NCBI GenBank assembly: GCA_031553005.1
Contig: JAVBMA010000008.1
Span: 78 to 64,077, forward strand
Length of the DNA stretch: 64,000 nucleotides
Direction of reading: 5' to 3'
DNA from: Paludibacteraceae bacterium
GTDB lineage: Bacteria; Bacteroidota; Bacteroidia; Bacteroidales; Paludibacteraceae
The translations under genes were made by a program, and so were the position numbers. Shown here piece after piece: positions 1,888 through 57,733 of the stretch (the first letter of the stretch is position 1; each line of letters begins with the position of its first letter). The notes below the pieces were generated by a model. That model worked only from the letters and a program-made list of their open reading frames with translations, searched no databases and was not told the DNA's origin.

Positions 1888-1908
1888 TTAACTTTCAACT
1901 TTCAATTG
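1888..1908 (-). repeat. GTGAAAG-family heptamer array (short; forms the 3' end of apbE)
   Basis: Minus-sense reads CAATTGAAAGTTGAAAGTTAA, encoding the last residues LKVES and the TAA stop. Confidence 0.6.
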
Positions 1909-2934
1909 TTCTGTAAAGTATTTCCTAAAACCCTCCGTATATTTTTCCGCCAAACAATTATAAGCGGTTGAATAAATGAAATAGGCTTCAATATCGGGCA
2001 TAAAATTAGCCACAATCAGGCTCTCCTCAAGCCCCATCACCATGAAAGCAGTAGCGTATGCATCGGCCAGCATACAGTTTGGAGCTATAACCGTCACACT
2101 CAACAAACTATGGTCAACCGGATAACCGGTATGAGGATTTATCGTATGTGCATATTTTTTTCCGTCCTTATGATAATATTGCCTGTAATTTCCGGAAGTT
2201 GCCAATCCTCCGCTTTCCATATAAACAATATTCTGGAGTTCTGTTCTCATCATCGTGCTGTCGTCAATAGGTTTGGTTATACCGATTGCCCAAGGCGTCA
2301 GCCTGTCATTATGCCCTTTCACCACCACTTCTCCGCCAATTTCGACCATATAGTTTTCTATTCCTTTGGAATCAAGGAAAGAAGCGACAACATCGCATGA
2401 ATATCCTTTTGCAATAGCAGATGCGTCGAGCATAACCGCCGGATTGCTTTTTACCACACGGTCGCCTTCCAGCTTCACTTTTTCATATCCCGTTTTTTTC
2501 AATAGCGAACTTATCAGTTCGGGTGTAATACTGTCTTTACGGTTAAAACCAAATCCCCAAGCATTAACCAATGGTGCAACCGTCATGTCGAATGCTCCGT
2601 TGGTTATCTCCGAAACCCGCTGGCCTGTTTCAAATACGGTGCGGAAATAATCGTCGACTACTACATCTGGGTCATTATTATTGATTCTTGAAATAACAGA
2701 ATTGTCATTAAATGTAGAAAGAGAAAGGTCGAAAGAGCGGAATATTTCGTTCAACCCCGACTCCAACGATTTTCCGTCGGGAGATTCATAGATTATTTTA
2801 TAAAAAGTACCAAATACGCGTCCTTCATTTGTCAAAAACGTTTTCTCTTTTTTACCTGAGTTATAAAAAAACAGAAAAAACATACCCACTACCAATGCAA
2901 AAAGCAAAAAAACTTTCTTTTTATCCAACTTCAT
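1888..2934 (-). CDS. apbE: FAD:protein FMN transferase (ApbE family lipoprotein)
   Basis: 348 aa ORF with a membrane-anchor N-terminus, the conserved AIAKGY motif and overall ApbE-like sequence. Confidence 0.85.
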   Translation of the reverse strand: MKLDKKKVFLLFALVVGMFFLFFYNSGKKEKTFLTNEGRVFGTFYKIIYESPDGKSLESGLNEIFRSFDLSLSTFNDNSVISRINNNDPDVVVDDYFRTVFETGQRVSEITNGAFDMTVAPLVNAWGFGFNRKDSITPELISSLLKKTGYEKVKLEGDRVVKSNPAVMLDASAIAKGYSCDVVASFLDSKGIENYMVEIGGEVVVKGHNDRLTPWAIGITKPIDDSTMMRTELQNIVYMESGGLATSGNYRQYYHKDGKKYAHTINPHTGYPVDHSLLSVTVIAPNCMLADAYATAFMVMGLEESLIVANFMPDIEAYFIYSTAYNCLAEKYTEGFRKYFTEQLKVES

Positions 2935-3046
2935 AAATAACTATTTTTTAAACCACACTATCCTTCCGGAAGAATATAGAGGGCTTTCATTCATTCTAAT
3001 TTTGAAAGAACAAAATAAACATTTTTTTCTGAATTTCTTGACAAAA

Positions 3047-3118
3047 GGGAAAATGAGAGGTGAAAAGTGAAAGATGAAAGGGGAGAGGTGAAAGATTAAG
3101 AGGAGAAATTTGGAAAGG
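3047..3118 (+). repeat. GTGAAAG-family heptamer array in the apbE / DUF4290 divergent spacer
   Basis: GGGAAAATGAGAGGTGAAAAGTGAAAGATGAAAGGGGAGAGGTGAAAGATTAAGAGGAGAAATTTGGAAAGG. It shares the 22-nt block GGTGAAAAGTGAAAGATGAAAG with 54277-54298. Confidence 0.8.
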
Positions 3119-3376
3119 TTTGTTGTTTGAGGGGAGATTCCTTGTGAAAATCGTTATCACAAAATAATTTGATGTACTCAAACCAGACTCTGAGTACACC
3201 TAAAATATTTTTTGTTCAACTTCTGGGTGCATTTCAAAAATATATTTTTTCATCAAAAAACATTATGCATATTGCTAAACCTGATTTTTTTCTATCTTTG
3301 TGAGACCAAATCCTTCCGATTAGAAATTTTTACAAACAGAAATTTTCTTTTCGTTTTTATATACCAATACAATTTA

Positions 3377-3979: not shown

Positions 3980-3985
3980 TTACTG

Positions 3986-4024
3986 AGGTGAAAGGTGAGA
4001 ATTGAAAGGGGAAAGTTGGAATGA
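3986..4024 (+). repeat. GTGAAAG-family heptamer array, begins 7 nt after the DUF4290 stop
   Basis: GAGGTGAAAGGTGAGAATTGAAAGGGGAAAGTTGGAATG. The 20-nt block TGAAAGGTGAGAATTGAAAG (3989-4008) recurs at 54320-54339. Confidence 0.8.
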
Positions 4025-4098: not shown

Positions 4099-4131
4099 AT
4101 TGGGAGGGCGGCTTAAAGTCGCCTTCCCAAT
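4099..4131. repeat. H-family hairpin (TTGGGAGGGCG..apex TTAAA..)
   Basis: ATTGGGAGGGCGGC TTAAA GTCGCCTTCCCAAT. The two non-Watson-Crick positions are G-T, i.e. G-U wobbles on the plus-strand RNA. Related to 20202-20234. Confidence 0.75.
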
Positions 4132-4325: not shown

Positions 4326-5633
4326 ATGGCAAAATTTGTTATCGAAGGCGGGCATTCACTCAATGGCACTATTTATCCGCAAGGAGCAAAAAACGAAGCA
4401 TTACAGATTATTTGTGCAACCCTCCTTACTTCCGAAGAAATTACTATTGAAAACATACCTAATATATTAGATATCAATAACCTGATTCAGTTATTAATTG
4501 ATATGGGTGTATCTGTCCGTAAGAAAGCCGCAGATACATACACCTTTAAAACCGAAAAAATAAACCTTGAATTTCTGAAAACAAAAGATTTTCAGAAACG
4601 ATGCGCTTCCTTGCGTGGTTCGGTTATGCTGATCGGCCCGATGGTAGCCCGCTTCAAACAAGCAATACTCCCTCAACCGGGAGGCGATAAGATAGGACGC
4701 CGGAGGCTTGATACTCATTTTATAGGACTGCAAAAACTCGGAGCTAAATTTACGTATAACTCCGACCAACAATTATATCAGGTTTCCGCAAAAAAACTGA
4801 AAGGTAGCTACATGCTGCTTGACGAAGCATCTGTAACAGGTACTGCCAATATACTTATGGCTGCTGTTCTTGCTGAAGGGAAAACCACAATTTATAATGC
4901 TGCTTGCGAACCATACATACAACAACTATGTAAAATGCTGAATAAGATGGGAGCTAAAATCAGCGGCATCGGTTCAAACCTTCTAATCATAGAAGGTGTT
5001 GAATGTCTGCATGGTTGCTCGCATAGAATTCTTCCCGATATGATTGAAATAGGCAGTTTTATTGGAATGGCAGCCATGACAAGTTCCGAAATTACCATCA
5101 AAAATGTCTGTTACGATGAATTGGGAATTATTCCGGACTCATTCCGCAAACTGGGAATCCGGATGGAAAGAATTAATGACGACATATATATCCCCAAACA
5201 GGAAAAATATGCGATAGATACATTTATCGACGGCTCGATAATGACCTTCGCCGATGCACCGTGGCCGGGACTTACGCCCGACCTGCTCAGCGTATTCCTT
5301 GTTGTAGCCATTCAGGCACAAGGAAGCGTGCTCATTCATCAGAAAATGTTTGAAAGCCGCCTCTTTTTTGTAGACAAGTTAATTGATATGGGAGCCCAGA
5401 TAATCCTTTGCGACCCGCACCGTGCAACGGTAATCGGATTGGGAAATCAAAATCCGCTCCGCCCGGCAAATATGAGCTCGCCCGATATCCGCGCAGGAAT
5501 CGCGTTGCTTATCGCTGCAATGAGTGCAAAAGGCACCAGCACAATCAGCGGGATTGAACAGATAGACCGGGGGTATCAAAACATTGACGAACGATTAAAC
5601 GCAATCGGCGCACAAATTACGCGCATTTCATAA
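4326..5633 (+). CDS. murA: UDP-N-acetylglucosamine 1-carboxyvinyltransferase
   Basis: 435 aa, MurA-like throughout (GGHSLNGTIYPQGAKNEALQI..., KIGRRRLDTH, DIRAGIALLIAA). Confidence 0.95.
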   Translation: MAKFVIEGGHSLNGTIYPQGAKNEALQIICATLLTSEEITIENIPNILDINNLIQLLIDMGVSVRKKAADTYTFKTEKINLEFLKTKDFQKRCASLRGSVMLIGPMVARFKQAILPQPGGDKIGRRRLDTHFIGLQKLGAKFTYNSDQQLYQVSAKKLKGSYMLLDEASVTGTANILMAAVLAEGKTTIYNAACEPYIQQLCKMLNKMGAKISGIGSNLLIIEGVECLHGCSHRILPDMIEIGSFIGMAAMTSSEITIKNVCYDELGIIPDSFRKLGIRMERINDDIYIPKQEKYAIDTFIDGSIMTFADAPWPGLTPDLLSVFLVVAIQAQGSVLIHQKMFESRLFFVDKLIDMGAQIILCDPHRATVIGLGNQNPLRPANMSSPDIRAGIALLIAAMSAKGTSTISGIEQIDRGYQNIDERLNAIGAQITRIS

Positions 5634-31935: not shown

Positions 31936-31963
31936 TTACTTTTCACCTTTCACCTTTCACCTC
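31936..31963 (-). repeat. GTGAAAG-family heptamer array that starts with the rubrerythrin TGA
   Basis: Minus-sense reads AAGAGG TGA AAGGTGAAAGGTGAAAAGTAA. The stop codon at 31957-31959 is the first TGA of the array. Confidence 0.85.
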
Positions 31964-32508
31964 TTAAAATACCGGTTGTACAACCCCTGAAAGCCCTGAC
32001 CATGTCTCGCCTCATCCTTAGCCATTTCATGAACAGTATCGTGAATTGCATCCAGATTCAATTCCTTTGCACGTTTGGCAATGCGCATTTTATCGGCACA
32101 AGCGCCGGATTCGGCATTCATACGTTTTTCCAAATTGGTCTTGGTATCCCAAACAACCTCGCCAAGCAATTCGGCAAATTTAGCAGCATGTTCGGCCTCT
32201 TCGATTGCATAACGTTTATATGCCTCGGCAATTTCAGGATAACCTTCACGGTCTGCCTGACGGCTCATAGCCAGATACATACCTACTTCGGTGCATTCAC
32301 CCATAAAATGAGCGTTCAAGTCCCTGATCATCTCCTCGTCGCAATCTTTTGCAACTCCGATTACATGCTCGGTAACAAATGATAAAGACTGTGTTTCGTC
32401 CAGTTCTTTAAACTTGCTTGCCGGAACTTTACATTGAGGACATCTTTCTGGTGCTTCTTCTCCTTCGTGAACATAGCCACATACTGTGCAAATAAATTTC
32501 TTTTTCAT
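31957..32508 (-). CDS. rbr: Rubrerythrin with an N-terminal rubredoxin-like domain (reverse rubrerythrin architecture)
   Basis: 183 aa with CTVCGY...CPQC at the N-terminus followed by ferritin-like E..EX2H motifs (EEAEHA, DEARH). Confidence 0.9.
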
Positions 32509-33362: not shown

Positions 33363-34502
33363 ATGATAGATTATTCAAAAATACCTTCTCCTTGCTATGT
33401 CGTAGACGAAGTCCGTTTACGCAAAAATTTAGAATTAATCCGCTCTGTAAAAGAACGCTCAGGAGCTGAGATCATTATGGCATTCAAGGCTTTTGCCTTA
33501 TGGAAAGTCTTTCCAATCGTAAAAGAATACATTCCCTGTTCTACGGCAAGCTCGCTTAGCGAAGCCCGATTGGCATTCGAAGAGATGGGAAAACCTGCCC
33601 ATACATACGCTCCGGCATATACTGATAAAGAGTTCCCGGAAATTGCCGGATACAGCAGCCATATTACATTCAACTCACTGAATCAGTTTCATCACTTCCA
33701 ACCTGTCCTGAAAAAACTGAATAAAGATATTTCCTGCGGATTAAGAATAAATCCGGAATTTTCGGATGTCGAAACCGATTTATATAATCCTTGTGCCCCG
33801 GGATCCCGTCTGGGTATTATCTCCGGTTTACTCGGAGAAGCCCTTCCTCAAGGTGTGGAAGGATTACATTTTCATACATTATGCGAATCCTCTGCATCCG
33901 ATCTGGAAAGGACACTGGCTGAGGTTGAATCCAAATTCGGAAAATATTTTCCACAAATCAAATGGATTAACATGGGCGGAGGGCATTTGATGACCCGTAA
34001 GGATTACGATGTCGAACATCTTATCTCTTTATTACGCGCTTTCAAATCCCGCTATCCATGGTTGCAAGTGATATTGGAACCGGGCAGCGCTTTTGCCTGG
34101 CAGACCGGTGAACTGGTGTCAACCGTTACGGATATTGTAGAAAATAAAGGCATCAAAACAGCTATTCTGGATGTTTCCTTTGCATGTCACATGCCCGATT
34201 GCCTCGAAATGCCTTATAAACCTGCAATATTAGGAGCTAAAGACGAAACTGAAGGTAAGCCGACCTACCGCATGGGTGGCAATAGTTGCCTTTCCGGCGA
34301 CTTTTACGGAAACTGGTCTTTCGACAAAGAGCTACAAATAGGCGACCGGATCGTATTTCTTGACATGATACACTATACAATAGTAAAAACAACCATGTTT
34401 AACGGAATATCGCATCCGTCAATTGCCCTTTGGACTAAAGAGGGGAAATTAAAGATGCTGAGGGAATTTGGGTATGAGGATTATAAGATGAGGATGAGCT
34501 GA
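33363..34502 (+). CDS. nspC: Carboxynorspermidine decarboxylase
   Basis: From ATG 33363 (MIDYSKIPSPCYVVDE...). PLP-dependent decarboxylase fold with the NspC-type N-terminus. Confidence 0.85.
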   Translation: MIDYSKIPSPCYVVDEVRLRKNLELIRSVKERSGAEIIMAFKAFALWKVFPIVKEYIPCSTASSLSEARLAFEEMGKPAHTYAPAYTDKEFPEIAGYSSHITFNSLNQFHHFQPVLKKLNKDISCGLRINPEFSDVETDLYNPCAPGSRLGIISGLLGEALPQGVEGLHFHTLCESSASDLERTLAEVESKFGKYFPQIKWINMGGGHLMTRKDYDVEHLISLLRAFKSRYPWLQVILEPGSAFAWQTGELVSTVTDIVENKGIKTAILDVSFACHMPDCLEMPYKPAILGAKDETEGKPTYRMGGNSCLSGDFYGNWSFDKELQIGDRIVFLDMIHYTIVKTTMFNGISHPSIALWTKEGKLKMLREFGYEDYKMRMS

Positions 34503-34523
34503 AAGGTGAAAAGGGAAAGGTTG
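34500..34523 (+). repeat. GTGAAAG-family heptamer array that starts with the nspC TGA
   Basis: GAGC TGA AAGGTGAAAAGGGAAAGGTTG. Confidence 0.8.
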
Positions 34524-44762: not shown

Positions 44763-44837
44763 AAATCAGGGTTTTCAACTCTTGATTCGCATAATCCACT
44801 AATTACTACAGTCGGGCAGCAGACAAAAAACGCCTTT

Positions 44838-44863
44838 TTACCTTTCACCTTTCAATTTTCAAC
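44838..44863 (-). repeat. GTGAAAG-family heptamer array containing the MMPL gene stop
   Basis: Minus-sense reads GTTGAAAAT TGA AAGGTGAAAGGTAA. The stop is at 44852-44854. Confidence 0.8.
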
Positions 44864-48040: not shown

Positions 48041-48044
48041 CTGT

Positions 48045-48238: not shown

Positions 48239-48272
48239 AACTTTCACTTTTCACTTTTCACTTTTCAACTTC
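48239..48272 (-). repeat. GTGAAAG-family heptamer array containing the dehydratase stop
   Basis: Minus-sense reads GAAGTTGAAAAG TGA AAAGTGAAAAGTGAAAGTT. The stop is at 48258-48260. Confidence 0.85.
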
Positions 48273-48635
48273 AAGCTCTCCCTTTAAATCCACAAAAGAG
48301 ACCGTATTTTCAGGATTAGTAATAGTTGCTTTTATCTTGTATGATTCTTCTCCGGTTTCGGTAATCTGCACACGGACAAAGAGTTCGGAGTTTTGTGCAG
48401 GAATTATTACGGACAAAAATTTGCATTGGGAAATCCGTTTCAATAGTAATTTTTTTCCGGTCTCCTGTTGAACGCACTCCTTGATCATCTGTATATTGCA
48501 AACTCCGGGTGCAACCGGCATATCCGGAAAATGCCCTTTGTAAACTTTATACGAAGGGTTCAGGGCAACTGAGAAAATCACGCTGTTTTCTTCCTCTATT
48601 CTGTCCTGTATGGTAAAATATTCTCCTAAAAGCAT
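48258..48635 (-). CDS. FabZ-like 3-hydroxyacyl-ACP dehydratase (hotdog fold)
   Basis: 125 aa with GHFPDMPVAPGV, the FabZ/FabA active-site motif. Confidence 0.7.
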   Translation of the reverse strand: MLLGEYFTIQDRIEEENSVIFSVALNPSYKVYKGHFPDMPVAPGVCNIQMIKECVQQETGKKLLLKRISQCKFLSVIIPAQNSELFVRVQITETGEESYKIKATITNPENTVSFVDLKGELEVEK

Positions 48636-48895: not shown

Positions 48896-49000
48896 AGCAA
48901 AAATTTTTTATATCAAATTCATCTTAATATAAAATTTAAACAGTTTCCGAATAAAATTTAGAATTGATAGAAAAACGATCTCCGGTTTTCAACTTTCCGT

Positions 49001-49447
49001 TTATACATCCCAACGTTTTTTCCAATTGTCGAAAAAATCGGGATTGGAGATTTCAAAAATGCCGTCTTTCGTCATAAAAAGCTGGATAGAGGTAGCTTTC
49101 AACACAAGCGACTTATCGTTTTTCCGGTAAATAGTATATTCGAAAATAAGTTTTGCCGCCCGGCTGGGCACATAAGCTATCTCGATAATTATAGTATCGC
49201 CTACGGAAACAGGTTGTTTGTATTGAAGGTGCATATCGACAATCGGAGCTACATAGCCGCTGTTAAACATATACATGTATTCCAATCCGAATTTCCGCCC
49301 GAAAGCCTCTCTTGCATCTTCCATATATTTGACATAGTTTCCATGCCAAACCATATTGATAGAGTCAACCTCACTGAAACGGACATCTACCTCGATGCTC
49401 TCTGTCAGTTTTGGGAAGTCAGCCGCATCGCCACCTTGTTTTTTCAT
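49001..49447 (-). CDS. Acyl-CoA/acyl-ACP thioesterase (4HBT, YbgC-like hotdog)
   Basis: 148 aa with VRFSEVDSINMVWHGNYVKYMEDAR, typical of the 4HBT family. Confidence 0.75.
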   Translation of the reverse strand: MKKQGGDAADFPKLTESIEVDVRFSEVDSINMVWHGNYVKYMEDAREAFGRKFGLEYMYMFNSGYVAPIVDMHLQYKQPVSVGDTIIIEIAYVPSRAAKLIFEYTIYRKNDKSLVLKATSIQLFMTKDGIFEISNPDFFDNWKKRWDV

Positions 49448-49472
49448 ACAAAACGTTCATTTACGACAAACC

Positions 49473-49874
49473 TTATTCCTTAATAAATATTTTCATCTGG
49501 CAGGTTGCCACTGTACGGTCGCCCACTTTAGTTTCGGCAGAAAGGAGGCTTATATTCATCACTTCCGACAAAATGCGTATGTGTGTAACCAATTTATCGC
49601 CAACCCCGGGAAGTTCCAATGTCTCATATTTTTTGACTTCGCCGATAAAACCAACCGGAACCGGCTGATTTTTCTGTTTTGCCTTGTAACCGGCAAAAGC
49701 CGATGCAGACTGGGCAATATGCTCAATCAAGCCGGGTTCGGTAAAACGTCCGGACTCGCAAAACAAATTGTCCGGCAAAACGGTCAATCCCGTTACACAA
49801 TTATTTTCCTCCGCACTATACAGCACATCAACCATTATGATCGGCTCTCTCTGGGGAATAAAATCCTTCATCAT
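49473..49874 (-). CDS. Hotdog-fold dehydratase-like protein (ApeI/ApeP-type candidate)
   Basis: Start set at ATG 49874 (MMKDFIPQREP...). The upstream 28 codons of ORF 49473..49958 are read from the stop-free strand of the heptamer array. Confidence 0.5.
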   Translation of the reverse strand: MMKDFIPQREPIIMVDVLYSAEENNCVTGLTVLPDNLFCESGRFTEPGLIEHIAQSASAFAGYKAKQKNQPVPVGFIGEVKKYETLELPGVGDKLVTHIRILSEVMNISLLSAETKVGDRTVATCQMKIFIKE

Positions 49875-49878
49875 TATA

Positions 49879-49981
49879 GGTGAAAATTGAAAGGTGAAAA
49901 CTGAAATAGTTGAAAAGTGAAAAGTGAAAGGTGAAAGCTTTTTTATCTCACCTTTCATCTTTCACTTTTCACCTTTCACCC
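49879..49981. repeat. Inverted pair of GTGAAAG-family arrays between the ACP stop and the dehydratase start
   Basis: Plus-oriented units at 49879-49937 and minus-oriented units at 49947-49981. The ACP TGA (49976-49978) lies inside the second arm. Confidence 0.85.
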
Positions 49982-50221
49982 ATTTAACCTTTGGTAAATA
50001 AAATCGTACAGGCTTTCGAATGTTTGAACGGCTGCGATTTCCTGACCTTTAATTTTTACATTGAATGTATTTTCAATCAGAGCTACCAAATCAACCAAAC
50101 TCAAGCTATCCAGCATTAAAGTGGCTTTTATATTTGCATCGGGAGTAATTTCGGAAACTTCGATTTCAAACTCTTCTGCCAATACTTCATTCACTTGCTC
50201 TATCAATTCTTGCTTTTCCAT
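49976..50221 (-). CDS. Acyl carrier protein
   Basis: 81 aa with the LDSLSLVDLV phosphopantetheine attachment motif. Confidence 0.85.
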   Translation of the reverse strand: MEKQELIEQVNEVLAEEFEIEVSEITPDANIKATLMLDSLSLVDLVALIENTFNVKIKGQEIAAVQTFESLYDFIYQRLNG

Positions 50222-50258
50222 GCGTTGTAAATAATTTCGTTATTAATTATGTGTTTTC

Positions 50259-50293
50259 TTATTTATCTGATTATCTGACCATCTGATTATCTA
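50259..50293 (-). repeat. Period-8 stop-rich array starting with the KS stop codon
   Basis: Minus-sense reads TAG ATAATCA GATGGTCA GATAATCA GATAAATAA. Confidence 0.65.
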
Positions 50294-51514: not shown

Positions 51515-51670
51515 ATATCTAATTTAAATTTATTTCAGTTTTTATCATACGCCAGAGTCCCGTTTCATTTACTTCGACATGAAGACACAAAGGCGTAAAG
51601 AAAATATAAATTGCAGTCTCTTTACCTTTAAAATATTTCTGACAACTTCCCCTACCTACAGCCACTCACC

Positions 51671-51699
51671 TTAACTTTCACCTTTCACTTTTCAACTTC
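51671..51699 (-). repeat. GTGAAAG-family heptamer array, 8 nt after the acyltransferase stop
   Basis: Minus-sense reads GAAGTTGAAAAGTGAAAGGTGAAAGTTAA. Confidence 0.8.
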
Positions 51700-51704
51700 T
51701 ACCC

Positions 51705-53102
51705 TCAAGCGGACTTCTGATATCCGTCAACAATACTTGATTTCAGTTCAATGTCTAAACATGAAAATATTTCTTTCCTTAATTGAATCAAATCCTGAAT
51801 TTTCCCACTTTTCAACAGCTTCCGGAAGCGTATTTCACTCCTCCATTTGATGAACGTTTTACGGTAATTCCATGCAAAAAGTCCAATAAACGGCAAAGTA
51901 AATAAATAAATCATAGCTATCCAAAACGAACCGGAGATAATCCGGCACAGGGCAAAGGCGAGGGTATAGAACAGAGGGATTGTAGCTAACACGCTGAGTC
52001 CGAAATTAAACGAACCGTAAAACATCTTATCTTTCAGCTTTCTGTTTATCAACCGGGGAGCCAGAAAAATAATGATATTCGGAATCAGGGAAAAAATAAA
52101 CAGGGGAAATAGCACTATATAGAGAAGAGCTCTTAACAATATAGAAAATATAGAAAATTTTCCATCAAAATTCCAATCCCTGATATTGAATTTCAATGTT
52201 TCTTCTTTTAATTTCAATACTTTCCGGAACAGGGCTTCTGTTTTTGATTCTTCTTTCTCCTTCAAATCTGCCATATCAGCAATAAATGCTTTATCCGAAA
52301 GCAATCTGTCCGGTAAAAGACCGGACTTGAACCCTCTTTTCTTTGCGTATTTTGCTCCGTATGTATTCCTGAGGTAATCCAACGCTTCATAATTTTCCAA
52401 ATCGGTGATATTAAGCATCAATTGCTCTATCTGTTCACGAACCAGCCTGTTTACCTCCCGCTGAGCCGTCCTCGGCTTTGTCTTATACAGCTCATAATAA
52501 GGAGCTAACGAGATAGGAGTCCCGAATTTAATCACTAACTCTTCCTGTATGCTAAAATAATTGGAATAATGGTTGCACGAGGGCAAAATAAGGATATCAT
52601 CCTGAAAACCTGCCTTTTCGGCAGCTCCGAATGCAAGCCTCAGATAGCCCAAGGAAAATTCACCCAGCCATCTTTTATCCTGATGTCCCGCTTCGGGATA
52701 GATAATAACCGACCGGCCTTTCATCAACTCCTTTCCGGCAGCTTCAAAAGTCTCGTTATTATTACCAAGCGCCGCTTCACCTTCATAATCCAACCTGAAA
52801 GCGGGCAACAGCCCGATAAAACGTAAAAATTTATTGGCTACCGGATGTTTAAATACATCGGCGCGTGCAATGAAGTTTGCCTTCCGTTTTCCCAAAGCAA
52901 AAAGGATACCGAGCGGATCATTCAGGCAGTTCTGGTGATTGGAAACAATCATCACGGGAGTTCCGTTTACCGGAATATTTTCCTGATTTACGGTGTATGT
53001 TTTTCTATAAAATATCTTATCGTGAAAAAAACGTACATAAGAGCGAAACATTTTGAAAGCCAATCCCGGCTTTAATTTTTCCGCATTTTCGTTTATGTTC
53101 AT
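51705..53102 (-). CDS. Lysophospholipid acyltransferase (LPLAT/PlsC family) with a C-terminal membrane domain
   Basis: 465 aa with HX4D (NHQNCLND) and YPEAGHQ motifs, plus C-terminal TM helices. Confidence 0.75.
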   Translation of the reverse strand: MNINENAEKLKPGLAFKMFRSYVRFFHDKIFYRKTYTVNQENIPVNGTPVMIVSNHQNCLNDPLGILFALGKRKANFIARADVFKHPVANKFLRFIGLLPAFRLDYEGEAALGNNNETFEAAGKELMKGRSVIIYPEAGHQDKRWLGEFSLGYLRLAFGAAEKAGFQDDILILPSCNHYSNYFSIQEELVIKFGTPISLAPYYELYKTKPRTAQREVNRLVREQIEQLMLNITDLENYEALDYLRNTYGAKYAKKRGFKSGLLPDRLLSDKAFIADMADLKEKEESKTEALFRKVLKLKEETLKFNIRDWNFDGKFSIFSILLRALLYIVLFPLFIFSLIPNIIIFLAPRLINRKLKDKMFYGSFNFGLSVLATIPLFYTLAFALCRIISGSFWIAMIYLFTLPFIGLFAWNYRKTFIKWRSEIRFRKLLKSGKIQDLIQLRKEIFSCLDIELKSSIVDGYQKSA

Positions 53103-53438
53103 AAAAATCCTTTCCTAATTTCTCATTCGTACTATTATGGTTCGGGACAGATAGTATAAAAAGCCGCTCCCGGCTATCTTAAAATTCAAGACTATGAATA
53201 AGTGATAAAACCCGAAAAATAAAATTCTTTTTTGTCTTCTTCTAAAAAATAACTTCGCAAAACTAATATTTTTTTTCAAATCAATTTTAGTCCCATTTTC
53301 CAGAAATAAGGTAATAAAAGCGGATTTGAGAGTAAAAACACCGGGATATCCGGGGTGCAACTTTCTGTCGCGCCCCGGATTGAAATACAAACATTATGAA
53401 AATTTGGAATAAAAATTTGGAATAAAAAAATAAAACAT

Positions 53439-53446
53439 TACCTTTG
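53439..53446 (+). promoter_or_regulatory. -7 promoter box (TACCTTTG) for tRNA-Lys(TTT)
   Basis: 36 nt upstream of the tRNA. Preceded by the direct repeat AAAATTTGGAATAAA x2. Confidence 0.5.
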
Positions 53447-53481
53447 CACCGCCTTACAAAAAAATAAGGCAATATAAGGAT

Positions 53482-53557
53482 GAGTTAGTAGCTCAGCTGG
53501 TAGAGCACATCCCTTTTAAGGATGGGGTCCTGGGTTCGAGCCCCAGCTGACTCACCA
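53482..53557 (+). tRNA. tRNA-Lys (anticodon TTT), CCA encoded
   Basis: Acceptor GAGTTAG/CTGACTC, anticodon loop CTTTTAA, T-loop GGTTCGAGCC. Confidence 0.9.
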
Positions 53558-53558
53558 A

Positions 53559-53597
53559 AGAAGCTTTCAAATTGTTTTGAAAGCTTCTCTTTTTTTG
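53559..53597 (+). terminator. Terminator after tRNA-Lys(TTT)
   Basis: AGAAGCTTTCAAA TTGT TTTGAAAGCTTCT: 13-bp perfect stem followed by a T7 run. Confidence 0.8.
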
Positions 53598-53629
53598 TAA
53601 TAATGCCAAAGATAAGAAGGTATCCTAAA

Positions 53630-53745
53630 AATACTTTAACCACAAAGTACACAAAGTTTTACACTAAAGGGCACAAAAAATAACAATTGACTATCAATAA
53701 ATTTTCCTTGTGTACTTTGTGGTAAAGAATTGACATTGCTGCTTT
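53630..53745. repeat. M-type MITE-like palindromic element, copy 2 (opposite orientation to copy 1)
   Basis: CCACAAAGTACACAAAGTTTTACACTAAAGGGCACAAA matches the reverse complement of 30819-30857. Its own inverted repeat partner is CCTTGTGTACTTTGTGG. Confidence 0.7.
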
Positions 53746-53796
53746 TGGTATTTTTTTACCGACCGAAAATTCTATTTAATCCAAAATATATGAAAA

Positions 53797-54267
53797 TCAC
53801 TTTCCTAAATTCCGTTTCTCCAATTCCAACAATCTCATTTTAACATCCAACCCTCCGGCATAGCCCGTTAGGCTTCCATTCGCGCCCACAACACGATGGC
53901 ATGGGATTAAAATCGGTATCGGATTGCGGTTATTTGCCATCCCGACCGCACGGCAAGCAGCAGGTTTGCCAATTGCCTCTGCTATCTGCTTATAGCTCCG
54001 GGTTTCTCCATAAGGTATCTCCAGCAATGCATTCCAAGTCAATTGCTGAAAAATGGTTCCTTCCAGCCTGAGCGGAACATCAAACAACTGCCGCTTCCCA
54101 TCAAAATATTCTTTCAGTTGCAGATACATTTTTTTTATCAAAGGAGTCTCCTCCTCGACCACGCTTGTCACTCTCTTTTCAAAAAAAGAGATCCCGGTAA
54201 TATATTCCGCATCGGCAAAAACCTGTAACCGCCCTATCGGGGTTTCGTAAAAAAAATAAAACTGCAT
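53797..54267 (-). CDS. ogt: Methylated-DNA--protein-cysteine methyltransferase
   Basis: 156 aa with the IPCHRVV active site. Confidence 0.9.
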   Translation of the reverse strand: MQFYFFYETPIGRLQVFADAEYITGISFFEKRVTSVVEEETPLIKKMYLQLKEYFDGKRQLFDVPLRLEGTIFQQLTWNALLEIPYGETRSYKQIAEAIGKPAACRAVGMANNRNPIPILIPCHRVVGANGSLTGYAGGLDVKMRLLELEKRNLGK

Positions 54268-54269
54268 AA

Positions 54270-54401
54270 GTTGAAAGGTGAAAAGTGAAAGATGAAAGTT
54301 AGAATACTTAGGTAAAAGTTGAAAGGTGAGAATTGAAAGCTGAAAGGTGAAATATTTCTATTTCATCAAAAACTTTCATCTTTCACTTTTCACCTTTCAA
54401 C
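54270..54401. repeat. Perfect 31-bp inverted GTGAAAG-family arrays filling the ndpA-ogt spacer
   Basis: 54270-54300 GTTGAAAGGTGAAAAGTGAAAGATGAAAGTT is the exact reverse complement of 54371-54401. An extra plus-oriented array lies at 54311-54352. Confidence 0.9.
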
Positions 54402-54405
54402 TTAT

Positions 54406-55458
54406 TCAAACTTCATATTCAAAGAAAAGCTTATAATAGTGTAGTCCTTTGCTTTGGTCGAAGCCTTTTTCGATAAAGCGACGGTTTCCGTGAACGTAGA
54501 CATGGAAATTTTTATCCAGCTTCAATACGGACTTAAAGGACTTGTTCTCTTTTTTAACTACATCGGGGGATATTTTGAACTCTTCATTCAAAGAAACATT
54601 ATTCTCTTTTTCGTAGAACTCTTTAAACTGGTTGAATGCATCTACAATATCGGGAGCAGCCAGTACTTCCCTTTCAAATTTATCTTCATCAAAAAGGGTA
54701 TTTTCTTTGAAGTAATTGATAGAACGGTTAAGCATGTCTATTTGCTCCGTACGGGGAACTTCGTTGGCAGGAGAAAAAACATCTTCGACAAATTCTTTAC
54801 AGACATTCAAGTAGTTATGAGTAAAAAAATTATTATCCTGCCGGTCTTCCAATCCCAGGAAATCTTCCTTCCAGAAAAGGGCTTCGTTTTGCTTGCTCAC
54901 TTTATCTATCAAAGAGACTACAAATCCTTTTTCGCGCTCAACGTCAAAAATCAGACATCCTTTGTCCAACTTCCGGATGTTAATGCCTTCTTCATAATTA
55001 ACATCAAACGAATTTTCGCCTGAACAGATTTTCAGGTAAGTCTCCTTATTTTCCGACTTAAAAATACCGAGGCACTTTACTGTCTGGTCAAAAATCTGGA
55101 CTCCGTCAAAAAGAGTAAGGTAAAATTCGCCGGGCTTGATCTGCGGATGGGATGAGTTTTCGTAGAGTGAAGCAGCCAGAATTCGGGAATGTTCGTAAAA
55201 AAGAGACGGATTGTCAAAAATTGCACAAGCAGACTGATAGACAATGTTTCCGGATAATCCTTTGGCTCCGCCTAAATGATAAAGGGATGGTTCGCGGAAA
55301 GAAGCCAGAAAATATTGTTTGAGCAGAAACGGTACAGGGCTTTCCTCTGCCATTTCCACACATTTTTGCGAATAAACATTTTCGGTATTATCGGTACGAC
55401 TGCCAATCTTATGGATCACCAGTTGTTCAATATCGGCATTTATTATATCAAAAAGCAT
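54406..55458 (-). CDS. Nucleoid-associated protein (NdpA/YejK, NA37 family)
   Basis: 350 aa with N-terminal ...QLVIHKIGSR..., typical of the family. Confidence 0.65.
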   Translation of the reverse strand: MLFDIINADIEQLVIHKIGSRTDNTENVYSQKCVEMAEESPVPFLLKQYFLASFREPSLYHLGGAKGLSGNIVYQSACAIFDNPSLFYEHSRILAASLYENSSHPQIKPGEFYLTLFDGVQIFDQTVKCLGIFKSENKETYLKICSGENSFDVNYEEGINIRKLDKGCLIFDVEREKGFVVSLIDKVSKQNEALFWKEDFLGLEDRQDNNFFTHNYLNVCKEFVEDVFSPANEVPRTEQIDMLNRSINYFKENTLFDEDKFEREVLAAPDIVDAFNQFKEFYEKENNVSLNEEFKISPDVVKKENKSFKSVLKLDKNFHVYVHGNRRFIEKGFDQSKGLHYYKLFFEYEV

Positions 55459-55460: not shown

Positions 55461-55498
55461 ATTTAGTGGTTAGTGATTAGTTATTAGTGGTTAGTGAC
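55461..55498. repeat. Period-7 array TTAGTGG/TTAGTGA next to the ndpA start
   Basis: ATTTAGTGGTTAGTGATTAGTTATTAGTGGTTAGTGAC. Confidence 0.65.
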
Positions 55499-55523
55499 AA
55501 AAAGAAAAGTAAAAAGTGATTGA

Positions 55524-56261
55524 TTATTTTTTATCACTTATCTTTTTATTATTAATCACCGTTAAAAGATCTTTGTATAAACTCTTCATATTCTTATAGA
55601 CCAGGTCGGCGCCGTTATCGGTCAACTCTTTATCTTTCAGTATACCTGTATTTACAGCAATAGTAAAAATCCCCGCAGCAACTGCCGAGCGAACTCCCAA
55701 CGGTGCATTCTCAACTACAACGGCTTGTCCGGGCTTTAAATTAGCTTTTTGCAAAGCCATCAAATAAGGTTCGGGATCGGGTTTTCCCTTTTTGACATCG
55801 TAAGCGGTTACCATTTTTTCCCGTTGGAAAAATCCGGGAAAAGAATGATCCAAGGTATCAAGCAAAGACAATTGGCCGGAACCGGTAACAATAAAAATCC
55901 CTAATCCGGCATCTTTAACCACCTGCAAAACATCTTTCACATGGGGAATTATCTTGGGAGCTCCCAATGAATCAAAACAATCCGACTTTGCTTTATAGAT
56001 TTTTTCACACTCTTCCTCGGTTGCATTGCGCCCCAACTGAAGCTGAAAAACATCGTTGATTGTGCCAACACTTGTCATGCCTTCACGCATATACGCTCCG
56101 TATTGGTCAAATTTGACACCTTGCTGTTCAAACGCATATACCCATGCTTTTGCATGGTTGGGCATCGAATCAAACAGCACGCCATCCATATCGAAAAAAA
56201 ATGCTTTTAAATCTAAAGAAGAAAGAACGGAAATTTTGTCTCCATTGCCTGAACAACTCAT
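55524..56261 (-). CDS. HAD family phosphatase (beta-phosphoglucomutase-like)
   Basis: Start set at ATG 56261 (MSCSGNGDKISV...), with FFFDMDGVLFDS as the DxDxV motif. The 81 upstream codons of the ORF are AT-rich leader. Confidence 0.8.
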   Translation of the reverse strand: MSCSGNGDKISVLSSLDLKAFFFDMDGVLFDSMPNHAKAWVYAFEQQGVKFDQYGAYMREGMTSVGTINDVFQLQLGRNATEEECEKIYKAKSDCFDSLGAPKIIPHVKDVLQVVKDAGLGIFIVTGSGQLSLLDTLDHSFPGFFQREKMVTAYDVKKGKPDPEPYLMALQKANLKPGQAVVVENAPLGVRSAVAAGIFTIAVNTGILKDKELTDNGADLVYKNMKSLYKDLLTVINNKKISDKK

Positions 56262-56500
56262 CTTTTGTGTTTTAAAAATATGAGAACAAAGATAAAAAAA
56301 ATAATGATGAAGAACGAAAAGAGGAAAAACCAATAATAAACTTTGCAATTTGCGAAGTTTATTGTTATTCTTGATAGTTATAGTTCTTAAATCGTACACG
56401 AACGTTTCAAACAAAGACCATTTATATATATATACATTTGAGCATTTGTATATCATTTTTAGAACATTGAGAAACAACATCCTGCCTTCTATTTTCACTA

Positions 56501-57733
56501 TCAATAACCGTGCTCCTCTTCCTCCATCTCTTCTTTACTTATTTTTGTCCGGTTCATTTTTTTCCATGCATAGGCGGTATATGCAAGAACAAAAGGGATG
56601 AGCAGCGAAACAACCGACATTACTTTTAAGGTAAATTCGCTCGAAGAACTGTTTTTCAGCGTCAGCGAGCTTTGTAAATCGGTCAAAGACGGATAATAGC
56701 TTGTGTTGTTGTATGCGGCAATAATCAGAAGAGAAAATACAACAAACACTATTCCGGTAGTGGCAAACCTGAAACCATTTTCACTGTCAGTAAACGCTCC
56801 TCTCCAAATTCCGGATAAAACACAGGCAATTCCCGACAGGAATAAAAAGAAAACTACCGGCATCTCTATAAAATTGCCGACATACTTATGGGGTTGTAAA
56901 AAAACTTCTCCGGTCGCGGGATCGACAGCAAAACCGTCTTTCAAAAATAATGCAACAACAAAATAGAGGAAGAAAACCAAAAATGGGATGGTTGCCCATT
57001 TTATAACTCTCCGGGCACGACCGGCAACTTCGTCCGAATCTACATTGCGGATAAAATAAAGCGCACCTGATATGCGCGAGAAAAAATAGAGCGCCAATCC
57101 TAATGCTACATTTACCGGATTTAATAACGCCTCCAATCCGTAAATAGCTCCTTGCCATTCGGAAATAGTCAACGAGCCTCCGTGAATATTGGTGATATTG
57201 CTTTTTGCAACCGTAAATTCGGCTCCTGTAAACATTGTTGCAACCACAACGCCCAATAGTAAAGGGCCAACAAACCCATTGATATACAAAAATGCATCAT
57301 AGGTTCTCTTTCCCAATAGGTTGCGGGACTTGGAACGAAATTCATAAGAGACAGCCTGAACGACAAAAGAAAACAAAATAATCATCCAGAGCCAATAAGC
57401 GCCTCCGAAACTGGTAGAATAAAACAGGGGAAAAGATGCGAAGAAAGCGCCTCCGAAAGTAACCAGCGTAGTAAAAGTAATTTCCCACTTCCGCCCAAGT
57501 ACATTTACAAGCAACAATCGTTCTTCCTCTGTTTTTCCCAACGAATAAATCAACGTCTGCCCTCCCTGCACAAACAGAAGAAAAACCAGCAAAGCTGCCA
57601 GGAGGGATATAATCGCCCACCAATAGTTTTGGAGGAATTGAAAGTTGAAAAGGGAAAGTTGAGAATTGGAAACAGCCAAGAGGATGAGAAGGTTGTTATG
57701 TACCCGGTTATCTGAGACTTTATTTTCCATCAT
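56501..57733 (-). CDS. cydB: Cytochrome bd ubiquinol oxidase subunit II
   Basis: NYWWAIISLLAALLVFLLFVQGGQTL is the conserved CydB N-terminus. The start codon is uncertain (ATG 57733 or an internal TTG at 57679). Confidence 0.85.
   Translation of the reverse strand: MMENKVSDNRVHNNLLILLAVSNSQLSLFNFQFLQNYWWAIISLLAALLVFLLFVQGGQTLIYSLGKTEEERLLLVNVLGRKWEITFTTLVTFGGAFFASFPLFYSTSFGGAYWLWMIILFSFVVQAVSYEFRSKSRNLLGKRTYDAFLYINGFVGPLLLGVVVATMFTGAEFTVAKSNITNIHGGSLTISEWQGAIYGLEALLNPVNVALGLALYFFSRISGALYFIRNVDSDEVAGRARRVIKWATIPFLVFFLYFVVALFLKDGFAVDPATGEVFLQPHKYVGNFIEMPVVFFLFLSGIACVLSGIWRGAFTDSENGFRFATTGIVFVVFSLLIIAAYNNTSYYPSLTDLQSSLTLKNSSSSEFTLKVMSVVSLLIPFVLAYTAYAWKKMNRTKISKEEMEEEEHGY
57631..57673 (+). repeat. 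GTGAAAG-family array overlapping the 5' end of the cydB ORF (antisense to cydB)
   Basis: GGAGGAATTGAAAGTTGAAAAGGGAAAGTTGAGAATTGGAAAC. Confidence 0.75.

Follow-up and report, generated by a model that had tools for sequence, protein, structure and literature searches.

Anatomy of the heptamer arrays and the genes they flank

The window, a 64,000-nucleotide stretch of DNA from a Paludibacteraceae bacterium, contains 13 tandem arrays of the heptamer N-TGAAA-R. They occupy the 11 loci that a preliminary description of this DNA had listed as degenerate tandem 7-mers, all of which were found again. A search for TGAAANNTGAAANNTGAAA with one mismatch at most returned 25 matches in the window, compared with 0.12 expected from 100 dinucleotide shuffles, and period 7 predominated in the TRF output. 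Cytosine is absent (0%) from positions 2–7 of the sense units; the conservation of positions 2–6 in the unit table is a product of the search pattern itself.

Pfam assigns the array-flanked genes to ApbE, DUF4290, rubrerythrin, Orn/DAP-decarboxylase (nspC-like), MMPL, FabA/ApeI-like, ACP, acyltransferase and NA37/NdpA. Nine arrays, all at these Pfam-confirmed genes, are in the sense orientation and lie on the stop codon or up to 9 nt beyond it, in agreement with the distance of about 10 nt first proposed. The array supplies the stop at six of the nine gene ends, through five TGA codons and the TAA of apbE; coordinates bear out the earlier assignment of an array TGA to rbr, nspC, MMPL, the FabA/ApeI-like gene (then called FabZ-like) and ACP.

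On the minus strand, an array of 2–3 units (TTGAAAG, TTGAAAG, TTAAGAA; 1885..1908) overlaps the end of apbE, providing its TAA (1888–1890) and encoding the terminal LKVES. The MMPL stop is the second TGA (44852–44854) of the minus-strand array 44835..44863, with LVEN array-encoded; both of these C-termini had been read in this way before. Similarly, three to four GTGAAAA units (48239..48275, minus) provide the stop of the FabA/ApeI-like gene with their second TGA (48258–48260) and encode its terminal EVEK; the gene of a relative (L149) ends in ...GEFT*, without an array. The rubrerythrin gene (rbr) stops at TGA 31957–31959 in the minus-strand array 31936..31967, which is followed by a classic terminator-like hairpin with a T-run at 31934–31889. 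On the plus strand, the first TGA (34500–34502) of array 34499..34523 is the stop of the nspC-like decarboxylase gene, with a tRNA-Gly downstream at 34587.

Independent stops precede the first unit at the three remaining gene ends. The DUF4290 stop (TAA 3977–3979) lies 8 nt before the plus-strand array 3986..4024, 3´ of which are two strong hairpins, one of them a REP-like palindrome (4099–4131). The acyltransferase stop (TGA 51705–51707) is 9 nt from the minus-strand array 51671..51702, and the ndpA (NA37) stop (TGA 54406–54408) is 5 nt from the minus-strand sense arm 54361..54403. Across the window, the next downstream feature is found 84–382 nt from the array.

Two junctions contain inverted copies. 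The ACP stop (TGA 49976–49978) is the first TGA of the sense arm 49945..49981 (minus), which faces one or more antisense arms at 49873..49937 (plus), CUUUCAC-type units in the minus-strand mRNA that end where the next gene downstream, dehydratase-like, probably starts (49874). The ndpA sense arm belongs to a 38-nt inverted repeat, 97% complementary; of the two antisense blocks at 54271..54353 (plus), the outer one pairs with 54371–54408, and the hairpin has the ndpA stop at one end and the ogt ATG (54267) at the other. The predicted folds of the ACP and ndpA junctions have MFE values of -44 and -60 kcal/mol, respectively, reaching from stop to start.

Two degenerate arrays lie elsewhere. The plus-strand array 3047..3118, with about nine units and a 21-nt super-period, sits between apbE and DUF4290, which start divergently at 2934 and 3212, respectively, in the divergent promoter region and at the end of no long ORF; only a 22-codon ORF terminates inside it. 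The other (57631..57673, plus) is antisense to the cyd operon, in an unusually long cydA–cydB gap or cydB 5´ extension. It falls inside a 33-codon N-terminal extension of the cydB ORF, whose Pfam domain starts at residue 34, and is the only array that clearly departs from the sense polarity.

Stop-codon anchoring and polarity

On the sense side, 9 of 15 window arrays and 28 of 48 GTDB arrays have a long ORF terminating at them; on the antisense side, none and one do, respectively. The orientation bias that had been suspected held against a mirrored control: in an in-silico inversion test, a long ORF ran into the array only from the sense side in 33 cases and only from the mirror side in 3 (p = 2e-7). 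The stop is located in unit 1, 2 or 3 (offsets 4, 11 and 18) or no more than 9 nt upstream of the array, and simple arithmetic gives such anchoring a probability of roughly 1e-10 under uniform placement. Part of the general pattern of sense-strand stops is definitional, since the arrays themselves supply the stop, and purine-strand polarity was not significant across the whole set of 7–9-mer families located wholly beyond an independent stop.

As each unit carries a TGA and its length of 7 nt is not divisible by 3, a sense array terminates any incoming ORF within three units. Both the stops in three frames and the stop-free complement, which prolongs ORFs that are spurious or doubtful (49473..49958 and codons 1–33 of 56501..57733), were confirmed. 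A plus-strand ORF that apparently ends at an array (49356..49883) was rejected as spurious, given its overlap with real minus-strand genes.

Selection for a fail-safe terminator, stopping ribosomes that read through or shift frame, has been considered and is decidedly improbable. All frames are closed within 21 nt by construction, and most other 7–8-mer families at stops in relatives also have sense-strand stops in all frames. However, two or three scattered stop triplets would suffice for this purpose, and stops are already frequent in AT-rich intergenic DNA. The 4–12 units, the shared core and the hairpin partners are left unexplained, and the enrichment is partly definitional because no ORF can continue past an array that reaches it.

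It is also very unlikely that the arrays act from the opposite strand. Rho prefers C-rich, G-poor, unstructured RNA, and the complement (CUUUCAC)n, C-rich, G-free and unstructured, could be a Rho loading site that terminates transcription entering the 3´ end of a gene from downstream, with the C-free sense strand sparing the gene's own transcript. The base composition of the two strands fits this proposal, as does a polarity that strictly follows the genes and not the region (2.5 kb separate the minus-strand array at 31936 from the plus-strand array at 34500). Nevertheless, many arrays span 21–35 nt, below the typical length of a rut site, convergent junctions show no evident excess in an informal tally of the window, and the anchoring within 0–9 nt of the stop is not accounted for.

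Copying, youth and distribution

The arrays are dispersed copies, as had been proposed, and not independent low-complexity sequence. An exact 22-mer occurs four times in the window and TGAAAGGTGAGAATTGAAA twice; a 27-mer is 100% identical at three loci and a 20-mer is common to four. In 5000 unit shuffles, this block sharing was equalled 0 times for the 27-mer and twice for the 20-mer, and the blocks common to several loci therefore indicate copying. Differences in unit number were counted as evidence of slippage: one array (L008) has two units more than its ortholog (L005), and a neighbouring TCAGATAA array has 3.8 copies in the window and 9 in L149.

Comparison with relatives supports insertion or expansion of the arrays. 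At 80 metagenome loci, among them relatives with a KAS identity of 91–95%, the orthologous gene ends have no arrays, and junctions of 101–382 nt in the window correspond to overlaps or to 6–45 nt in relatives. For example, the distance from the acyltransferase stop to the KAS start is 190 nt in the window versus about 30–45 nt in the closest relatives, and most relatives have the ACP and dehydratase-like genes overlapping by 4 nt (TGATG). Since arrays are absent from the orthologous ends of close relatives, the window copies are young insertions or expansions. They have rewritten C-termini and enlarged what were compact operon junctions.

The distribution of the family is wide. The exact 22-mer is present in 25 GTDB contigs, mostly Bacteroidales and Chitinophagales and also Chloroflexota and Verrucomicrobiota, and TGAAA arrays occur in more than 120 viral contigs. 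One viral contig of 67% GC (L081) has seven arrays at gene junctions, located upstream of ordinary SD-like GAGGA motifs. Two contigs with 70–79% nucleotide identity (L022 and L026) keep arrays at two or three of four orthologous junctions, and each encodes a protein ending in VKGER*.

These data also bear on a non-adaptive explanation, in which the arrays are selfish or mutational junk without a function of their own, part of a burst of small intergenic repeats in this lineage, with site and orientation determined only by where arrays arise and are tolerated. This is a real possibility, although a rather unlikely one. The compact operon with tiny or overlapping junctions in relatives is swollen here by other repeats and hairpins as well as by arrays, and several unrelated 7–8-mer families and REP-like palindromes share the window. 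A kinase gene carries one array in its reading frame, where the in-frame TGA alone has been mutated, and periods 7 and 8 dominate the tandem repeats of related genomes in a sample not selected for arrays. The array-free orthologous sites of the relatives with 91–95% identical KAS fit as well. However, tolerance by itself predicts scatter through long gaps in both orientations, in place of the 33 to 3 bias and the limit of 9 nt; arrays are retained between L022 and L026, and in streamlined viral contigs most gene junctions have one.

The arrays are perhaps best regarded as a recent, strand-polar family of heptanucleotide simple-sequence repeats of the LSSR/STRR type, with the unit N-TGAAA-R and RNA-level effects at cistron boundaries, a reading to which we would give slightly less than an even chance. 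According to it, arrays would have been inserted or expanded recently at cistron boundaries in this lineage, units would be gained and lost through slippage, and ectopic conversion or template switching may have copied multi-unit blocks from one locus to another. This might have been seeded by 'TGA + A-rich' sequence, which is common where genes end. Once an array abuts a gene, the loss of the original stop would be nearly neutral and an array TGA could take over, the array-encoded residues (LKVES, LVEN, EVEK or VKGER) thereby becoming the C-terminus. A mutational origin alone leaves unexplained the stop placement within gaps of 100–380 nt and the near-absence of antisense copies.

Possible action on RNA and relation to known heptamer repeats

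If the arrays act, cistron boundaries are the likeliest place; there they could stop translation in all frames, provide a single strand rich in A/G and free of C, and pair with inverted copies into hairpins. In the 3´ UTR or intercistronic mRNA, the array would be C-free, A/G-rich and unable to self-fold, beneath the terminating ribosome, with effects that probably depend on context. It would terminate translation in all frames. Where the next start is close, as in about 30% of arrays outside the window (an ATG lies within 20 nt of 9 of 28 GTDB and 29 of 104 viral stop-anchored arrays), it may serve as an A-rich unstructured leader; in Bacteroidia, starts are selected through upstream adenines (PMC13000457). 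With an inverted copy, it could form a strong hairpin from stop to next start or between convergent genes, leading to structure-dependent coupling, a barrier at the mRNA 3´ end or termination. A strong but unrelated hairpin follows the ACP stop in every close relative, that of L149 being made of TTGAGAG heptamers. For seven of the nine gene-end arrays in the window, the leader and the hairpin role are both inapplicable: each lacks an inverted partner, and more than 80 nt separate it from the following gene or tRNA.

Alternatively, the same core in distant phyla and viruses could reflect a conserved trans-acting partner. A single-strand RNA-binding protein or oligomer recognising UGAAA at 7-nt spacing, for which ribosomal protein bS1, cold-shock or RRM-type proteins and a TRAP- or HutP-like ring protein are candidates, would act on mRNA that a terminating ribosome has just freed, with consequences for stability, termination or re-initiation; we consider this unlikely. 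HutP recognises NAG triplets separated by 4 nt, hence with period 7, and the pentamer recurs at regular 7-nt spacing, specifically on the sense strand and at many loci per genome. Moreover, S1, Csp and CsrA-like proteins have been suggested for TAACTGA repeats (PMC4679880). However, the conservation of positions 2–6 is imposed by the search pattern, and different units at the same kind of site in related genomes (GGTAAAAA, TTGATAA, GGTTAAT and TCAGATAA) argue against one specific factor. In B. thetaiotaomicron, RbpB CLIP showed an AU-rich preference and other motifs, not a UGAAA array (PMC11697453).

The preliminary description had suggested that array RNA pairs with the 3´ tail of 16S rRNA (AGGUGA/UCACCU, GAAAGG/CCUUUC), which might capture or hold terminating ribosomes. 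Six-base complementarity does arise where units read ...AAAG-GTGA..., and a position directly after the stop would suit a ribosome-linked role. However, AGGTGA is found at only about 33% of unit junctions (window and GTDB loci) and 1% in viral arrays, and arrays also occur in Chloroflexota and Verrucomicrobiota and beside ordinary SD motifs. With the ribosome on the stop codon, the downstream array is in the entry channel and not at the platform. Furthermore, Bacteroidia ribosomes are experimentally 'blind' to SD sequences, the 3´ tail (U1537–U1544, including the sequestered U1541–U1544) being buried by bS21, bS18 and bS6 (PMC7797042; PMC9976891, PMC13000453), and the Bacteroidia 30S does not bind the SD oligo AGAAAGGAGGU (PMC7797042). 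Pairing with the 16S rRNA tail is an unlikely mechanism, and ribosome capture by it is scarcely to be expected.

The TGAAA arrays are a new sequence family within the known class of heptanucleotide SSRs (STRR, TAACTGA and Xanthomonas GGGAATC). The initial impression that no such element had been described holds for the literal GTGAAAG array, which was not found in the searchable literature, but not for the class: arrays of heptamers lying across or directly beside stop codons, and closing every frame, have been described (PMC4679880, PMC4692102). TAACTGA direct repeats are known from marine Beggiatoaceae, some Cyanobacteria and five Bacteroidetes (MacGregor 2015, PMC4679880). Like the window arrays, they have a 7-nt unit, two to tens of copies and many intergenic loci per genome; their 'forward' repeats close all three frames and extend across the stop codon of the gene upstream; they are gene-oriented without SD involvement, and their phylogenetic distribution is patchy, with orthologous sites in close relatives lacking them (PMC4679880). 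The unit differs, however, and TAACTGA repeats lie mostly a few nt upstream of a start, whereas the window arrays are stop-anchored and mostly far from the next start. TGAAA arrays are also far more widespread in Bacteroidota and are present in viral contigs.

The GGGAATC / GGGGA(C/T)T repeats of Xanthomonas and Nostoc are likewise heptamer SSRs, about 90% intergenic, but they are G-rich and quadruplex-forming, their unit has no stop triplet, and transcripts contain the two strands in roughly equal proportion (Rehm et al. 2015, PMC4692102). In contrast, TGAAA arrays cannot form G4 structures, provide the stop from their own units and are nearly all in the sense orientation. The STRR heptanucleotides of Cyanobacteria and the 'long simple sequence repeats' (Mrazek et al. 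2007) are, as cited in PMC4679880 and PMC4692102, genome-specific tandem heptamers of non-coding DNA like the TGAAA arrays, and heptamers are there the commonest prokaryotic LSSR class, without known function. The STRR unit sequences differ, and these cited passages mention neither polarity to the upstream gene nor stop anchoring.

Finally, the inverted-array loci (49873–49981 and 54263–54408) resemble REP/BIME elements and MITEs as dispersed, hairpin-forming intergenic insertions at operon junctions, whereas single TGAAA arrays are non-palindromic, with 7-nt tandem units in variable number. A REP-like palindrome family is also present in the window.

Stop-anchored heptamer arrays

Degenerate tandem heptamers with a TGAAA core (unit N-TGAAA-R) are present at all 11 loci named in the preliminary description, with TRF period-7 arrays at every locus and a total of 13 arrays in the 64 kb. 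The feature is real and strongly non-random: in the window (37.7% G+C), TGAAANNTGAAANNTGAAA has 25 matches with at most one mismatch, against a mean of 0.12 and a maximum of 2 in 100 dinucleotide-preserving shuffles. The arrays are predominantly non-coding, and their overlap with confirmed coding sequence is limited to terminal codons and the 5´ extension of cydB. Among 70 units, position 1 is occupied by G (49%), T (29%), A (16%) or C (7%), and position 7 mainly by G (56%) or A (34%), with 0% C. C is absent from positions 2-7, the conservation of positions 2-6 being partly imposed by the search pattern used to collect the units.

Sense arrays, whose TGA triplets are read in the direction of the adjoining gene, occur at nine gene ends, as proposed previously, and these genes were confirmed by Pfam. 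The neighbouring genes correspond to ApbE, DUF4290, rubrerythrin (rbr), an Orn/DAP-type decarboxylase (nspC-like), MMPL, a FabA/ApeI-like dehydratase, ACP, an acyltransferase, NA37/NdpA, Ogt and CydA/CydB. It was verified that the stop codon is one of the array's own TGAs in rbr, nspC, MMPL, ACP and the ApeI-like gene (initially called FabZ-like). The C-termini of apbE (...LKVES*) and MMPL (...LVEN*), both described as array-encoded, do lie within arrays, and so does that of the ApeI-like protein (...EVEK*). Independent stops precede the first unit in DUF4290 (8 nt), the acyltransferase gene (9 nt) and ndpA (5 nt). Counted from the array's edge, the first base past the stop falls 4, 11 or 18 nt inside (in units 1-3), or else no more than 8 nt ahead of the array. 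The next gene or tRNA lies 84-382 nt beyond the stops of the array-bearing genes, and arithmetic from the coordinates gives a chance of about 1e-10 for such anchoring under uniform placement within the gaps. Convergent genes that face an array from its far side stop 16-24 nt away.

On the sense strand, 9 of 15 window arrays and 28 of 48 arrays from GTDB contigs terminate an ORF of 300 nt or more; on the antisense strand, none and one do so, respectively. In a symmetric test, the array was inverted in silico and scored for whether it would then stop a long ORF on the opposite strand. The sense bias held under this mirrored control, with 33 sense-only versus 3 mirror-only cases (p = 2e-7), and the heterogeneous viral set gave 62 versus 37 (p = 0.015). 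A general rule equating the purine-rich strand with the sense strand was rejected for 7-9-mers located wholly past an independent stop, as the counts (19 versus 11 in set M, 74 versus 68 in the viral set) were not significant. The near-absolute sense polarity, combined with stop contact within 0-9 nt, provides an unusually clean handle on heptamer-array function.

As first described, a sense array carries stops in all frames and its complement is stop-free. Since an all-frame-stop array must end any ORF reaching it, part of the broader pattern of sense-strand stops is definitional. These stops could act as a fail-safe against translation past the gene end, a role that is considered quite unlikely. 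The arrays also matter for annotation: by providing stop codons together with a few residues of the C-terminus, they give proteins array-encoded tails, and the stop-free complement lengthens false ORFs. A plus-strand ORF (49356..49883) apparently ending in an array is spurious, as ACP, a dehydratase-like gene and a 4HBT thioesterase occupy the minus strand there.

Four of the 13 arrays are away from gene ends. The first (3047-3118) lies between divergent starts. Two form antisense arms of hairpins, at 49873-49937, where the sense arm starts at the ACP stop, and at 54271-54353, where it starts 5 nt past the ndpA stop. The last (57631-57673) is antisense and belongs to the cydA-cydB gap, where the cydB ORF is extended by 33 codons ahead of its Pfam domain; the array falls within this extension. 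This ORF (56501-57733) has no in-frame ATG, GTG or TTG near its conserved N-terminus, and the cydA-cydB gap at 57734-57988 is abnormally long (255 nt) and harbours two repeat arrays.

Repeat class and distribution

By its defining features, the TGAAA family belongs to the heptanucleotide simple-sequence repeat class, but to no named sequence family within it. Repeats of the LSSR/STRR type (long simple-sequence repeats and short tandemly repeated repetitive sequences) comprise units of 5-11 nt, head-to-tail, in at least three copies and far above chance; the TGAAA arrays show tandem copies, many non-coding loci and copy-number variation between related genomes, with a difference of two units at one ortholog between contigs L005 and L008. 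This identification is much firmer than any functional step. Heptamers have been reported as the over-represented class of prokaryotic long simple-sequence repeats (Mrazek 2007, as cited in PMC4679880 and PMC4692102), and cyanobacterial STRR heptamers are the oldest example. Searching the literature for the array, spelled either as DNA or as RNA, gave no relevant paper, and no description of the TGAAA family was found. The impression that such an element is undescribed holds, as far as this search goes, for the family itself but fails for the class, which is known, although functionally unexplained.

A close parallel is found in the TAACTGA repeats (MacGregor 2015, PMC4679880), which also have a 7-nt unit, run in forward orientation, stop every frame and overlap the upstream stop. 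However, TAACTGA repeats are anchored at the downstream start, 1-43 nt upstream of it, whereas TGAAA arrays are anchored at the stop and, with the two hairpin loci as exceptions, those in the window have more than 80 nt between them and the next start. Assignment to the TAACTGA family was discarded, given the different unit and the absence of a TAACTGA array from the TRF output for the window. Unlike TGAAA arrays, the GGGAATC repeats of Xanthomonas and Nostoc (PMC4692102) lack stop triplets and polarity.

Outside the window, the exact 22-mer GGTGAAAAGTGAAAGATGAAAG was found in 25 contigs from GTDB species-representative genomes, compared with about 0.07 matches expected by chance (22-mer, 596 Gb). 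The matches include Bacteroidales (Alistipes, Bacteroidaceae and others), Chitinophagales (Chitinophaga, Agriterribacter, Flavipsychrobacter and others), one member of the Chloroflexota (Ca. Hadersleviella, L020) and two MAGs of Verrucomicrobiota (L002 and L017), in loci with 41 to 64% G+C. The last two phyla rule out a phylum-specific element. Another contig, L026, from a 'Faecalibacterium' MAG, has its ortholog in the Bacteroidales contig L022 and was probably assigned to the wrong bin. The units beside the 22-mer resemble random draws from a small unit alphabet, so a conserved 35-nt super-motif across taxa is ruled out, and the cross-taxon identity requires neither horizontal transfer nor a longer conserved motif. 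The 190-kb long-read contig of Ca. Hadersleviella danica bears several TGAAA-type arrays, among them (ACTGAAAG)n 8-mers abutting stop codons in apparently antisense orientation (566-589, 5188-5219). The only other sighting of the source genome is a Logan contig, L001, identical to the window.

A four-unit TGAAAR pattern is present in more than 120 IMG/VR viral contigs, each with its own preferred variant (CTGAAAA, TTGAAAA, GTGAAAA, CTGAAAG and others) and often with several arrays. In one of them (L081, 3300017971_001938, 67% G+C), seven A-rich arrays are found at gene junctions, with an SD-like GAGGA between array and ATG. In this contig and in L045, L068, L087 and L102, A-rich (CTGAAAA)n, (CTGAAAG)n or (TTGAAAA)n arrays occur at nearly every junction, the upstream ORF ending within the array and the next ATG following 0-25 nt on. 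A tblastn host search with the array-rich L081 and L068 gave only distant portal or tape-measure matches in many hosts. Heptamers being the commonest long simple-sequence repeats in bacteria, the polarity, stop contact and breadth of the TGAAA family make it a good test system. Its arrays are now known from many Bacteroidota, among them gut Alistipes and Bacteroidales and the culturable Chitinophaga, as well as from viral contigs.

Copying, insertion and hairpins

Multi-unit blocks of differing units were copied from locus to locus. Four window loci share the 20-mer TGAAAAGTGAAAGATGAAAG, and three share a 27-mer; shuffling of the 70 units among arrays matched the observed sharing in 2 (20-mer) and 0 (27-mer) of 5000 trials. 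This confirms that the arrays are copies of a family rather than independent low complexity.

A scan of metagenomes with the KAS protein yielded 80 orthologous loci with 95-65% identity; judging by contig names, human-gut samples as well as other gut or rumen metagenomes appear to be among their sources. GTGAAAG arrays are absent in these relatives at the acyltransferase, KAS, ACP, thioesterase, ApeI-like, MMPL and oxidase ends, even at 91-95% KAS identity. The junctions are also shorter: ACP-dehydratase measures 101 nt in the window and is a TGATG overlap in most relatives, ApeI-like-MMPL 382 nt versus about 20 nt, and acyltransferase-KAS 190 nt versus about 30-45 nt in the closest relatives. 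Overall, the operon at 43170-55458, an aryl-polyene/flexirubin-like lipid cluster, has gaps of 100-380 nt, compared with 0-45 nt or overlaps in most of the 80 loci, the extra DNA consisting of heptamer arrays, AAAGACGC-type repeats and hairpins. These absences and shorter junctions show that the window arrays arose recently, by insertion or expansion, overwriting C-termini and enlarging a compact operon. If the arrays were pure junk without function, which is rather unlikely but has an appreciable chance, they would record a lineage-specific burst in which a compact biosynthetic operon was swollen yet unbroken.

Other 7-8-mers are found at stops in the relatives (GGTTAAT, TTGATAA, TTGAGAG, GGTAAAAA, TCAGATAA, GAAAATAA), and in a sample of relatives not selected for arrays, periods 7 and 8 lead the tandem repeats (62 and 43 arrays). 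An 8-mer array in the window (TCAGATAA x3.8, minus strand, 50263-50292) covers the TAA stop of KAS and occupies much of the gap to the ACP start; about nine copies of the same type occupy this place in the relative L149. The 8-mer family is thus also stop-anchored and variable in copy number.

Longer persistence is seen in L022 and L026, whose coding DNA is only 70-79% identical. Of four orthologous junctions, two to three retain TGAAA arrays, which differ in length and unit order, and one protein ends in the array-encoded VKGER* in both genomes. In addition, a 42-nt TGAAA array lies in frame within a diacylglycerol-kinase-like gene (L022:2297-2338, L026:2859-2900, minus strand), in the context …GGDGTVNEVA-[RGIVKGEKGKAKGE]-RSTALGILPMGSGNGFARHL…; the only unit with a would-be in-frame TGA reads GGA (GGGAAAG). 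Its presence in two such divergent genomes indicates that arrays can also enter coding sequence and persist there as an inserted loop.

Nine of the 13 arrays have no inverted partner, and the sense RNA of a single array is C-free and therefore unable to fold on itself. The two inverted-array hairpins (-44 and -60 kcal/mol, as raw energies without z-scores) each reach from one gene's stop to the next gene's start codon; that at 54263-54408, a candidate for comparison with REP/MITE-like palindromic elements, has 38-nt arms, 97% complementary, around 70 nt. An intrinsic (Rho-independent) terminator was rejected, because single arrays do not self-pair and the two hairpins have no clear U-tract. 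Among the nine gene-end arrays, a clear intrinsic terminator follows only at rbr, as a separate terminator-like site. That the antisense strand serves as a Rho-loading site is very unlikely. At gathering score, Rfam detected only tRNAs in the window, and a permissive search gave sub-threshold generic-hairpin (miRNA precursor) matches at both inverted loci. A strong hairpin follows the ACP stop in every close relative, with unrelated sequences, which suggests that structure rather than sequence is kept at this junction. It is built of inverted heptamer arrays both in the window (GTGAAAG) and in L149 (TTGAGAG).

Further short intergenic tandem-repeat families are located at 55463-55497, 57921-57948, 44737-44759, 12094-12128, 14534-14614, 59631-59674 and 53399-53428. 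Among them, (TCACTAA)5 lies 5 nt ahead of the ndpA start, and (ATTAGTCA)3.5 follows cydA, its reverse complement lying 14 nt ahead of the oxidase gene start. A 54-nt dispersed repeat (12030, 14498) houses the ACTCGTTT and AGTAAACA/GTTTACTT arrays, and 13-mers are located upstream of cydA and close to tRNA-Lys. The REP-like perfect palindrome ATTGGGAGGGCGRCTTRAAGTCGCCYTCCCAAT has three copies (4099-4131, 20202-20234, 42008-40), one of them about 75 nt downstream of the array at 3986. A 92-nt dispersed inverted repeat (30792-30883/53612-53703, 76% complementary) is intergenic at both sites, one directly past tRNA-Lys. Direct repeats of 128-211 nt at 24775-25098 and 25672-25997 (77-92% identical, spacing about 899 nt), with similar starts at 24937 and 25836, suggest putative tandem paralogous genes.

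Possible origin and function

A composite explanation, combining spreading, neutral stop loss and context-dependent effects on expression, is tentatively preferred, at somewhat short of an even chance. The arrays would spread by slippage together with template switching or ectopic conversion. Gene ends often carry a 'TGA + A-rich' sequence, and seeding there could account for both anchoring and polarity. Once an array adjoined a gene, loss of the original stop would be nearly neutral, which may be why most genes now use an array TGA. Expression effects would vary by context and could include all-frame termination. With a close downstream cistron, the array may act as an A-rich unstructured leader; outside the window, about 30% of stop-anchored arrays lie within 20 nt of the next ATG, and Bacteroidia are described as choosing starts via upstream adenines (PMC13000457). 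Inverted-copy hairpins might contribute to coupling, 3´-end protection or termination.

Alternatively, the arrays could be a widespread, selected cis-acting element of cistron boundaries in Bacteroidota, some other bacteria and many phages, each unit combining a UGA stop with a potential NUG-AAA restart. After the all-frame stop, post-termination ribosomes would be held or relayed on the C-free, A-rich track, tuning re-initiation or, with an inverted copy, unmasking the next start. This proposal is improbable; if true, the arrays would couple the translation of neighbouring cistrons in a way suited to ribosomes that disregard Shine-Dalgarno (SD) sequences. A binding array for a UGAAA-recognising protein is just as improbable, and the motifs from CLIP of RbpB (PMC11697453) do not match the arrays. 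Any action of the arrays on termination, re-initiation or mRNA ends would bear on polycistronic expression in SD-blind Bacteroidia.

Pairing with the 16S rRNA 3´ tail, proposed at the outset, is the weakest of the models and highly improbable. AGGTGA is found at only one third of junctions (33% in the window, 32% in GTDB loci) and at 1% of those in viral arrays, so contiguous complementarity to the tail, expected in every functional copy, is not general among the arrays. For Bacteroidia, the literature describes a sequestered tail and 30S subunits that do not bind an SD oligonucleotide (PMC7797042, PMC9976891, PMC13000453): the F. johnsoniae 30S, with its entire tail buried, shows no binding to AGAAAGGAGGU (PMC7797042), and the ribosomes are SD-blind (PMC9976891, PMC13000453). 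Moreover, the arrays also occur outside SD-poor lineages. The window contains no 16S gene.

Two resemblances are regarded as coincidental: CUUUCAC is identical to a typical anticodon loop of tRNA-Glu(UUC), and TTGAAA is similar to the sigma-70 -35 box.
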